A stretch of 64,000 nucleotides of DNA from Escherichia coli O157:H7 (GTDB lineage: Bacteria; Pseudomonadota; Gammaproteobacteria; Enterobacterales; Enterobacteriaceae), in NCBI RefSeq assembly GCF_013167455.1, contig NZ_CP038328.1. One strand, given 5' to 3'. The position numbers were made by a program. Shown here piece by piece: positions 36,001 to 39,000 of this stretch (position 1 is its first letter; each line of letters begins with the position of its first letter).

Positions 36001-39000
36001 ACTGTTGACACAAAAACAGTTTTTAATTGTAGATTACATACACCAACCACCCACCCCGCCCCACAGAACGCCGGGCAATACTTCGAGTTACCAAGCAGTG
36101 GTCAGGGGGTAAGTAGCCAGCCCGAGGCGTATGAACATGACGGCAGGGTTCAACTTTAATAACTATGCAGCAGGTTTTTGTTCCGCTACCCGGCGTTAAG
36201 GGGAAATGAGGTCAACATGGATACTATCGATCTTGGCAACAACGAATCTCTGGTGTACGGCGTGTTTCCCAACCAGGACGGTACATTCACCGCGATGACG
36301 TATACCAAAAGCAAAACGTTTAAAACCGAAAATGGTGCCCGTCGCTGGCTGGAAAGAAACTCAGGTGAGTGATATGGATTTCGACACAATCATGGAAAAG
36401 GCTTACGAAGAATACTTCGAAGGCCTTGCCGAAGGCGAGGAAGCTCTCAGCTTCAGTGAGTTTAAACAGGCGCTTTCCAGTTCGGCAAAATCTAACGACT
36501 AACGGAGTTAAAGATGGAATTTAAAGATTTACTAAAAGAAATCCAGGAAATTGCAGCACATGCACTTCACCAACGTCTGAACGAAGTTGAATTAGAATCT
36601 GCAACGAAGAAATACATTGATAATATGGCTCGTAATGTGCGCGATGCGTTTACCGGATTGTACTCTGTTTCGGTAACAAACAACCAGAATACTGAAGAAA
36701 CTGCAAAGCGGATTGCCTCGGTGATGGGTTTTCATGTCGAGGAAAAGTATTCAAAAAAAGAATTCTGGAAAACTACAAAAAAATTGCAGAGCGAGAACTG
36801 TCATCTCCTGCGGCAATCGCTTCTTTCTATGAGGAAAGTTATTCAGATGACACAGGATTACCGGAACTGCTCTCATTACTTGAAAAATTCGGAATTATCA
36901 TGAAAGGGACTGCGTCGGCGGATTTCACATACTCAATGATGGCTGCTGATGGAGAGCCTTTTCCTCCCGAACTTAAAATAACCCCCGGCAATCATCCGAT
37001 GGTAACAATAAGAGCAATAGAGAATTACTGGTTTAATCCAGTTCAACAATAGTTGGTCTTTGCAATATTTTTAATGGGCCACTACGCCCTTAATCTCGGG
37101 CGGCGTTTAACTCTTTATTCAGTAAATCAGACTGATACTGATTTGGCTTTGTAATGATACTGTCAAGTTTTGATATATGAAATTCAACATGTTCTGGACA
37201 GTTAAAAATGTAATAACCGCCCTTCTCTAAAAAGCCAGAAAGAGCGTTACAGGCAGGGCATGGTTTGTTTGGCATTTTATCCTCCATTAAGGGCTGAATT
37301 AAAAATGGAGACCAACACGCTGCTACGTGTGGTCGTGCGCCGGACACAGATAAGAATCCGGCACTGACAGTTTACTGAAAGGATATATCCCTGAAAAGTC
37401 AGGGCATAACACGAAAGTGCACGGCGAAGTCCTTCTCCCTTAGAGCCGTCGTTAAATTTAATTCGACCGTGCGCTTCCGGTTGTGGCAATCCGCGAAATG
37501 GCGCGGCGGTAAGTATGGCGGGGTTATTCTTTCCCCGTTGAGGACACCGGGTTGTCAGGTTGACCATACGCTTAAGTGACAACCCCGCTGCAACGCCCTC
37601 TGTTATCAATATTCTGGTGACATTTGGCGGTATCAGTTTTACTCCGTAACTGCTCTGCCGCCCTTTTTTAAAAGTGAATTTTGTGATGCGGTGAATGCGG
37701 CTCAGCGCACGCGGAACAGTTAAATCGGTAAAGCGGTCATTTGCTGAGTAACGAGAATGCTCTGTATCCGGCGTTAATTGTTAACTGGTTAACGTCACCT
37801 GGAGGCACCAGGCACCGCATCACAAAATTCATTGTTGAGGACGCGATAATGGAAAAGTTATCATGTAATGCCAGCACGTCTGAACTTCGTTTCGAAATTG
37901 GCGTTATCACTGGAGACAAAACATTTATTGAAGACGCCATTAAGCAGAGAAAACTCGAGCAGGACCTGTTAAATGAAGTATGCATTCCTTCAATGCTGGC
38001 TCGTCTGGACCTGCTGCAAAAAGGATATAAACAATGAATACAACATTTGCACTCGTTCTGACAGTTTATCTTGTTTCCGGCGAATCTCTTGAGCTGGTGA
38101 CTGGCTTATACGGTTCAATGAAAGAATGCATGGCTGCAGCAGCAGAACAAAAAATTCCCGGTAACTGTTATCCGGTAGATAAAACTACTCACACTAATAA
38201 TAACGAAATACCGGCAGGACTTTAAAACAGCACCGTAATTAATATCCGGTTTCATTTTTATATGCCAGCAATGGCAGGGATTTGTTCACCCTTAAATCTG
38301 TAATGAGGTTAAAACACAATGAGTAAAATCTTTATTTGCGCTGCTATTCCTGACGAACAGGCCATAAAAGAAGATAGCGCTGTTGCGGTGGCCACTGCCA
38401 TTGAAGCCGGTGATGAGCGTCGCGCACGCGCAAAATTTCACTGGCAATTTCTGGAGCAATTCCCGGCAGCTCAGGACTGCGCTTATAAATTTATTGTCTG
38501 CGAGGATAAACCCGGCATACCCCGCCCTGCCCTCGATTCCTGGGATACCGAATATATGCAGGAAAACCGCTGGGATGAGGAGTCAGCTTCCTTTGTACCG
38601 GTCGAACCAGAATCCGATCCGATGAACGTCAATTTTGACAAGCTGTCCCCTGAAGTACAGAACGCAGTCCTGGTTAAATTCGACACATGCGAAAACATCA
38701 CCGTTGATATGGTGATTAGCGCACAGGAATTACTACAGGAAGACATGGCAACATTCGGCGGACATATCGTTGAAGCGTTGATGAAAATGCCAGAAGTTAA
38801 CGCCATGTATCCTGAACTTAAACTGCATGCCATCGGGTGGGTTAAGCATAAATGTGAGCCTGGCGCTAAATGGCCTGAAATTCAGGCAGAGATGCGCATC
38901 TGGAAAAAACGTCGCGAAGGTGAACGCAAGGAAACCGGAAAATACACGTCTGTTGTTGATCTCACCCGCGCCAGAGTCAACCAACAGAACACTGAAAACG

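Follow-up and report, generated by a model that had tools for sequence, protein, structure and literature searches.

The window analysed here is a 64,000-nucleotide stretch of Escherichia coli O157:H7 DNA (contig NZ_CP038328.1 of assembly GCF_013167455.1), within which a prophage adjoins yccA. In the RefSeq annotation of a near-identical locus (L001), the early region of this prophage reads as a gene for an HTH repressor, the relB/relE pair, a DUF1391 gene (ydfA), ydfB and an ORF of 129 codons, followed by a convergent small gene, dicB, a DUF1482 gene and an exonuclease gene. The 129-aa ORF corresponds to the RefSeq entry WP_000394511.1, a "hypothetical protein". The features on which the analysis turns are as follows, all on the plus strand.

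36217-36372, plus strand: ydfA (DUF1391), from the RefSeq annotation of L001 and alignment to K-12 Qin.
36374-36502, plus strand: ydfB, from the same annotation and alignment.
36514-37052, plus strand: the ancestral whole gene, 179 codons if run 2 is read as A8, occupying the ydfC slot.
36514-36903, plus strand: the present 0-frame ORF, with 90 genuine residues and a 39-residue out-of-frame tail (WP_000394511.1).
36753-36759, plus strand: run 1, A7, in frame in all intact homologues and not the lesion site.
36777-36783, plus strand: run 2, A7, the site of a 1-nt deletion, A8 in intact 179-aa alleles.
36784-36903, plus strand: the out-of-frame tail of the truncated product, LQSENCHLLRQSLLSMRKVIQMTQDYRNCSHYLKNSELS and then a stop.
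36783-37052, plus strand: the -1 frame continuation, IAERE...WFNPVQQ and a stop, corresponding to the C-terminal domain (89 aa) left stranded by the frameshift.
36900-37052, plus strand: a small ORF annotated separately in some genomes, the last 50 codons of the -1 continuation.
37612-37663, plus strand: the DicF small RNA (Rfam RF00039, 76.9 bits, E=2e-16).
37849-38037, plus strand: dicB, encoding an inhibitor of cell division, at the operon's distal end, from the L001 RefSeq annotation mapped onto the window.

A scan for promoters and terminators returned nothing informative for the gene. The host prophage is a decaying element, as its near-identical copy in PV15-279 illustrates: there the RefSeq annotation records a gene split by IS66, a lysozyme gene truncated by IS3, and frameshifted terminase and TrmB genes.

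An ORF finder places the 129-aa frame, from ATG to TGA, at 36514-36903. A preliminary description of this DNA had proposed that the ORF is continued by an open -1 frame to a stop near 37050, and this is borne out, since the -1 frame runs without a stop from 36696 to a TAG at 37050-37052, a span of 118 codons that overlaps the 0-frame ORF over 36696-36903. Given the frequency of stop trinucleotides in the window, the chance of 99 open codons is about 0.025. Two A7 runs lie inside the overlap and constitute its slippery X_XXY_YYZ heptamers, spaced 24 nt apart. The first had been located exactly in the preliminary description; the second, given there as 36774-36780, actually begins and ends 3 nt further downstream. 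Both are in phase as A_AAA_AAA, with the 0-frame context TCA AAA AAA GAA (S K K E) at run 1 and ACA AAA AAA TTG at run 2. Such runs are not rare in this DNA, as the window contains 24 A/T runs of 7 or more nucleotides. Upstream of run 1 only, a GAGGA at 36739-36743 ends 9 nt before the run and doubles as V-E-E codons; its distance from the run is close to that of the stimulatory Shine-Dalgarno sequence of dnaX.

Translated, the -1 frame (IAERELSSPAAIASFYEE...WFNPVQQ) gives the C-terminal half that is conserved in homologous proteins encoded in a single frame. When the repaired protein was searched against 5.8 billion proteins, full-length relatives (P0001-P0009) of 177-186 aa were returned at 63-94% identity, all of them single-frame, along with matches to the 129-aa form. 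The repaired translation is identical to one known protein (P0135) and 94% identical to another (P0001), both of 179 aa and both read in one frame, and a copy in ETEC4068, at 80% nucleotide identity, is annotated as a single 186-aa gene. The single-frame version that the preliminary description had suggested seeking among homologues therefore exists, and the homologues are not pairs of separate genes sharing the same boundary, an arrangement that would have spoken against an interrupted ORF.

These homologues also place the lesion. The preliminary description had put the frameshift at run 1, which is ruled out because all intact homologues read through that run in frame, as ...EEKYSKKEFWK..., with the SKKEFWK stretch unbroken. 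At run 2, the junction in the three groups of 179-aa single-frame alleles (P0001, P0002 and P0155) is EFWKT(T/A)KK-IAERE, precisely the product expected from an A8 tract, and the DNA encoding these three proteins, in three Logan contigs for P0001 and in contigs for P0002 and P0155 (L005-7, L025, L022 and L023 in all), has A8 (CAAAAAAAATT) at the run-2 site. Intact alleles thus exist that differ from the window allele in run 2 by one base, A8 against A7. From the junction in intact homologues and the A8 tract in their DNA it follows that the lesion is a one-base deletion, A8 to A7, at 36777-36783, and that it lies in run 2, not in run 1. Neither run is itself a fixed feature of the family: run 2 is absent from the ETEC-type allele (CCAAACGCATC) and run 1 is broken in the P0155 allele (TCGAAAAAAG). 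The two-frame layout and its slippery site are not kept among homologues at 63-94% identity, and the absence of the layout from every divergent homologue marks it as a recent derived state. The out-of-frame tail at 36784-36903 has no homologue match in its frame because intact alleles use the other one.

To assess how widely the shortened tract is distributed, we searched 5426 complete E. coli genomes with an A8-bearing query. The best match was 99.6% everywhere, the value that corresponds to A7, and no match reached 100%; the A7 allele is present in 385 of the 5426 genomes and the A8 allele in none. All 539 bases of 36514-37052 are 100% identical in the chromosomes of O157:H7 and other Shiga-toxin-type E. 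coli, and the carriers include O103:H2, O121:H19 and unrelated animal isolates, among others. Nearly all carriers also agree fully, at 100% identity, over the 269 nt on the 3' side of the frameshift. IMG/VR was scanned with a pattern permitting tract lengths from A6 to A9, and 8 of 8 contigs had A7 at both runs. At the protein level, the exact 129-aa product (P0121) is encoded by at least 1000 contigs, two variants of it with a single substitution by at least 1000 and by 287 contigs, and the separately annotated 50-aa C-terminal piece (P0154) by 659 contigs. The C-terminal coding region recurs at lower identity in 26 further complete genomes (25 at 60-80% and one at 90-95%), and the one of these that was inspected, ETEC4068, carries an intact single-frame gene. 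The A7 deletion is genuine, and together with the early-region module of this prophage it has spread, both clonally and horizontally, among O157:H7 and other Shiga-toxin-type E. coli.

The protein falls into two parts: a module spanning residues 1 to about 90 is common to several phage families of unknown function (phrog_1363, phrog_2151 and others), and residues 91-179 have no match in Pfam or PHROGs. Nothing in Pfam scored above threshold for the protein as a whole, and PHROGs was set aside as a source of function, as its matches are confined to the N-terminal module and to families of unknown function. Searched exhaustively with HMMER against 1.84 billion representatives, the C-terminal domain had almost no relatives beyond its own cluster; the other matches from that search were weak and involved long proteins matched in several stretches. 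The phage GenBank collection yielded only a 138-nt match at 73% between the N-terminal part and phage Evi. A predicted structure based on a 10-sequence alignment (mean pLDDT 45.5, pTM 0.33) was too poor for a fold search.

The frameshift is located at the junction of the two parts, so that the product of the A7 allele has its N-terminal module entire, ends in a nonsense tail of 39 residues and lacks the C-terminal domain. Judged from this arrangement, the function of the C-terminal domain is presumably lost in the A7 allele, and that of the N-terminal module is possibly retained. Downstream of the lesion, the window allele differs from the intact P0001 allele by 2 synonymous and 2 non-synonymous changes. 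At position 163 it has Met, where the other 9 of the 10 aligned sequences have Arg, a difference that would be compatible with relaxed constraint without being proof of it.

We consider a plain homopolymer truncation, with at most incidental rescue by slippage, to be the likely explanation of the locus. Under this explanation, the starting state was a 179-codon accessory gene located between ydfB and dicF/dicB in a lambdoid (Qin-like) prophage, where it forms part of a repressor-controlled operon of the order ydfA-ydfB-X-dicF-dicB, X being the 179-codon gene; the repressor is encoded at 35032-35433. Replication slippage would have removed one A from the A8 run to leave A7, after which ribosomes passing ...EFWKTTKK would leave the true frame, translate 39 missense codons and terminate at 36901-36903. 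The predicted product retains about 90 aa, the N-terminal module, and lacks the C-terminal domain of 89 aa. Perhaps 1% or less of full-length protein could still come from -1 slippage, and the locus bears no apparent sign of selection for it. The inactivating mutation envisaged in the preliminary description therefore stands as a truncating homopolymer mutation, A8 to A7, though the site is run 2 and not run 1. As a counterpoint to plain truncation, the A7 allele is very successful and nearly monomorphic. This success could reflect hitch-hiking or tolerance, and is not proof of lost function.

How much rescue is to be expected can be estimated from published measurements. In E. coli, -1 frameshifting on a bare AAAAAAA amounts to 0.405%, rises to 0.82% with the stimulators of IS911, and reaches 24.8% only with the strong IS3 pseudoknot (PMC4066793 Table S3), over a background of about 0.055% (PMC4066793). 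Since a -1 slip at either run brings the C-terminal domain back into the product, some full-length protein is likely to be made; from the A7 allele it would carry the junction peptide ...EFWKTTKKIAER... or ...YSKKRILENYKK.... At about 0.4% per bare heptamer, the two runs would rescue no more than about 1% of translation events, and we regard such rescue as probably incidental. The level is estimated by analogy, and the slip could be made by the ribosome or by RNA polymerase, on either run. E. coli shows strong avoidance of the heptamer AAAAAAA in its genes, and transcriptional slippage or a high rate of indel mutation has been suggested as a possible reason (PMC4066793). The A-run indel seen in the window gene is the kind of event that fits the idea of a high indel rate.

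The alternative that survives best is selected slippage-dependent expression, in which one or both A_AAA_AAA runs would set the ratio of the 129-aa to the 179-aa protein, and we judge it unlikely. Slippage-dependent expression was among the readings offered in the preliminary description, and what stands of it is the arrangement of the sequence: the two heptamers are in phase within 24 nt of one another, either would restore the conserved frame, GAGGA precedes run 1 by 9 nt, the -1 frame is open over 118 codons, and 385 complete genomes of several serotypes carry one uniform allele. The AAAAAAA heptamer is also able to attain 25% where a strong pseudoknot assists it (PMC4066793 Table S3). Against this reading, no RNA structure in the 60-120 nt on the 3' side of either run surpassed shuffled controls (z between -0.56 and +0.70), and the bare heptamer gives about 0.4%, or 0.8% with the IS911 stimulators. 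Near and distant homologues are moreover single-frame, with A8 or no run at the site, and thus present no conserved recoding site; the carriers are near-identical, and their sequences offer no diversity that would reveal constraint on the downstream frame; and the Met at position 163 departs from the Arg of 9 of the 10 aligned sequences. The gene does not appear in the lists of conserved-heptamer frameshift candidates for E. coli (PMC4066793). A weaker form of the same idea, that the tandem heptamers, with GAGGA before run 1, act as a low-efficiency recoding or "savior" site, which would supply a small but relevant amount of the full-length protein beside a mainly N-domain-only product, in a ratio that keeps the allele uniform across the prophages of Shiga-toxin-type E. 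coli, seems to us somewhat less probable again.

Reversible phase variation, in which the tract would alternate between A7 and A8 and populations would thereby switch the C-terminal domain off and back on, is more doubtful still. A8 copies of the O157-type allele do occur, as the exact repaired 179-aa protein (P0135) is encoded by two contigs, from the assemblies O111:H11 CVM9534 and ADMX01, and a variant of it with one substitution by an O157:H7 draft, SE18018; homopolymer runs are also especially prone to indels, and E. coli genes contain AAAAAAA less often than expected (PMC4066793). Against this, tract-length polymorphism is limited to A8 in 3 draft assemblies; the tract is A7 in 385 of 385 complete genomes and in each of the 8 contigs from IMG/VR, and the 129-aa forms are encoded by at least 2287 contigs, compared with a handful for the 179-aa form. 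In the contig of CVM9534 a short A run has lost one base in a further deletion that is not shared, and its A8 may be an error for that reason; the SE18018 contig has extra unique substitutions. The A8 tracts in these three drafts, which share the same allele background, may represent relics of the ancestral state, reversions or errors. At 7-8 nt, such a tract is in addition short for a contingency locus in mismatch-repair-proficient E. coli.

A sequencing or assembly error at the homopolymer in the window, also raised in the preliminary description, has next to no chance of being correct: homopolymer errors do create false variants at the run-2 site, as in a 105-aa A6 form (P0011) whose source assembly has 12 single-base homopolymer deletions in 6.3 kb and which is rejected as a tract polymorphism and regarded as an assembly artefact, but the identical A7 in 385 genomes that many laboratories finished independently on many platforms, none of the complete genomes carrying A8, together with 8 of 8 IMG/VR contigs and at least 1000 contigs encoding the product, excludes such an error here as far as agreement between genomes can.

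The 129-aa protein, the separate 50-aa ORF and the 105-aa artefact all derive from one 179-codon gene. The value of plain truncation as a reading of this locus lies mainly in annotation clean-up, in that a "hypothetical protein" common in O157:H7-type strains, WP_000394511.1, is a truncated form of a 179-aa prophage protein. As an ordinary instance of a homopolymer frameshift allele it carries little biological weight, and its sole tie to known biology is its slot in the dicF/dicB operon, which is concerned with cell division control and phage resistance. The allele does offer a natural test case for the in vivo rescue of a frameshift by a bare pair of A_AAA_AAA heptamers.

Several known systems resemble the locus in part. 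The closest in organization is the dicBF operon of the K-12 Qin prophage, ydfA-ydfB-ydfC-dicF-dicB-ydfD, which has been described together with the multiple copies of the locus in O157 (PMC5069750). The skeleton is the same, and ydfA, ydfB, the dicF leader, DicF and the start of dicB are near-identical between K-12 and the window. The slot between them differs, holding the 72-aa YdfC in K-12 and the 179-codon gene with a convergent phrog_10133 gene in the window, and the window-type locus has a relB/relE pair inserted upstream, unlike K-12 Qin. Homology to YdfC (K-12 b1573) was considered and rejected, as neither the slot proteins nor the slot DNA align while the flanks are near-identical; unrelated sequence between near-identical flanks makes the gene a positional analogue of ydfC and not a homologue.

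In protein architecture, the nearest parallel is with prophage proteins of the "Ybl81" type (208-214 aa; phrog_2151 and phrog_1363), a name mentioned nowhere in the literature searched. They share the same N-terminal module of about 85 aa with the window gene, the identity being 55-67% across the initial 47-56% of the query, and their C-terminal domain is unrelated to that of the window gene.

The resemblance to programmed frameshifting is one of layout. Like the programmed sites at A_AAA_AAG/A heptamers in dnaX, the IS3-family orfAB genes of IS911 and IS600, and the tail chaperone G/GT genes of phages, the window gene has an in-phase X_XXY_YYZ heptamer of lysine codons, a -1 frame that encodes a conserved C-terminal extension and, at run 1, an SD-like GAGGA upstream. 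Unlike those programmed sites, it has no significant downstream stem-loop or pseudoknot, and its two-frame layout is not kept in homologues, with an expected efficiency of about 0.4% per site against tens of per cent in true programmed cases.

The pseudogenes of defective O157:H7 prophages provide the last comparison (for these defective lambdoid prophages, Asadulghani et al. 2009, as cited in PMC5069750). As in those pseudogenes, a single-base deletion in an A run affects an accessory gene of which intact alleles persist in other strains. Unlike them, the 129-aa product is listed by RefSeq as a normal protein with no pseudogene flag, and the break falls at a domain junction that leaves a complete N-terminal module.

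The N-terminal module of the 179-codon gene (about 85 aa; window 36514-36780) is common to many prophage proteins of 208-214 aa of the 'Ybl81' type (phrog_2151; P0019-P0120); the C-terminal domain of these proteins is unrelated to that of the 179-codon gene. Each carrier E. coli genome has a median of 2 and a maximum of 4 copies of the module. Many short-read assemblies break within the 179-codon gene, probably because of these multiple copies, and the breaks have left numerous "partial" entries in the databases.

The last 50 codons of the frame stranded by the A8 to A7 change form an ORF of their own:

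36900-37052, + strand: 50-aa ORF with an ATG start (P0154, e.g. BAI31074.1)

This ORF is annotated as an independent protein on 659 contigs, and the separate annotation is an artefact of the frameshift. Spurious clusters such as P0011 (105 aa) result from single-base homopolymer deletions in L008 (GCA_008122345.1, VIFR01000002.1), a 5.3-Mb assembly which has 12 of them in one stretch of 6.3 kb relative to the window, with several genes split.

In strain E105 (L004), ydfA/ydfB is interrupted by an IS3 element; the window has its own IS3-family copy at about 20193-21265, which lies on the opposite strand and is 96-98% identical to the E105 element. The prophage copy in PV15-279 (L013), corresponding to about 14000-33000 of the window, has several genes marked as disrupted by RefSeq: a DUF977 gene split by ISEc8 (IS66-family), a truncated lysozyme gene adjoining an IS3 element, and frameshifted genes for a regulator of the TrmB family and for the large subunit of terminase. 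This prophage also has a tRNA-Ile/Arg/Arg cluster.

Two features were identified upstream of ydfA:

35461-35939, + strand: relB/relE (PaaA2/ParE-type) toxin-antitoxin pair, an insertion that separates the repressor gene from ydfA
35991-36030: 40-nt near-perfect palindrome (ACAATTAAAAACTGTTTTTGTGTCAACAGTTTTTAATTGT), directly 5' of ydfA

The toxin-antitoxin pair has no counterpart at the corresponding place in K-12 Qin or ETEC4068; after it come a hairpin resembling a terminator (35958-35973) and a T7 run. The palindrome is a possible operator or promoter region and contains two polymorphic sites, A5/A4 at 36008-36012 and A/T at 36025.

Two further features lie downstream of the true stop of the 179-codon gene:

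37090-37347, - strand: convergent gene, matching phrog_10133 (E=7e-51)
37612-37663, + strand: DicF small RNA gene (Rfam RF00039, 76.9 bits; gathering score 48)

The product of the convergent gene carries a CPAC...CPEH motif that hints at a zinc finger. The DicF gene lies about 560 nt beyond the true stop, within a leader near-identical to that of K-12 Qin. From ydfB to this conserved leader, the window (36503-37333) holds the 179-codon gene and the convergent gene, whereas the same slot in K-12 (L009:2295-2830) holds the 72-aa ydfC, which is unrelated to the window's gene; the slot is a replaceable cassette.
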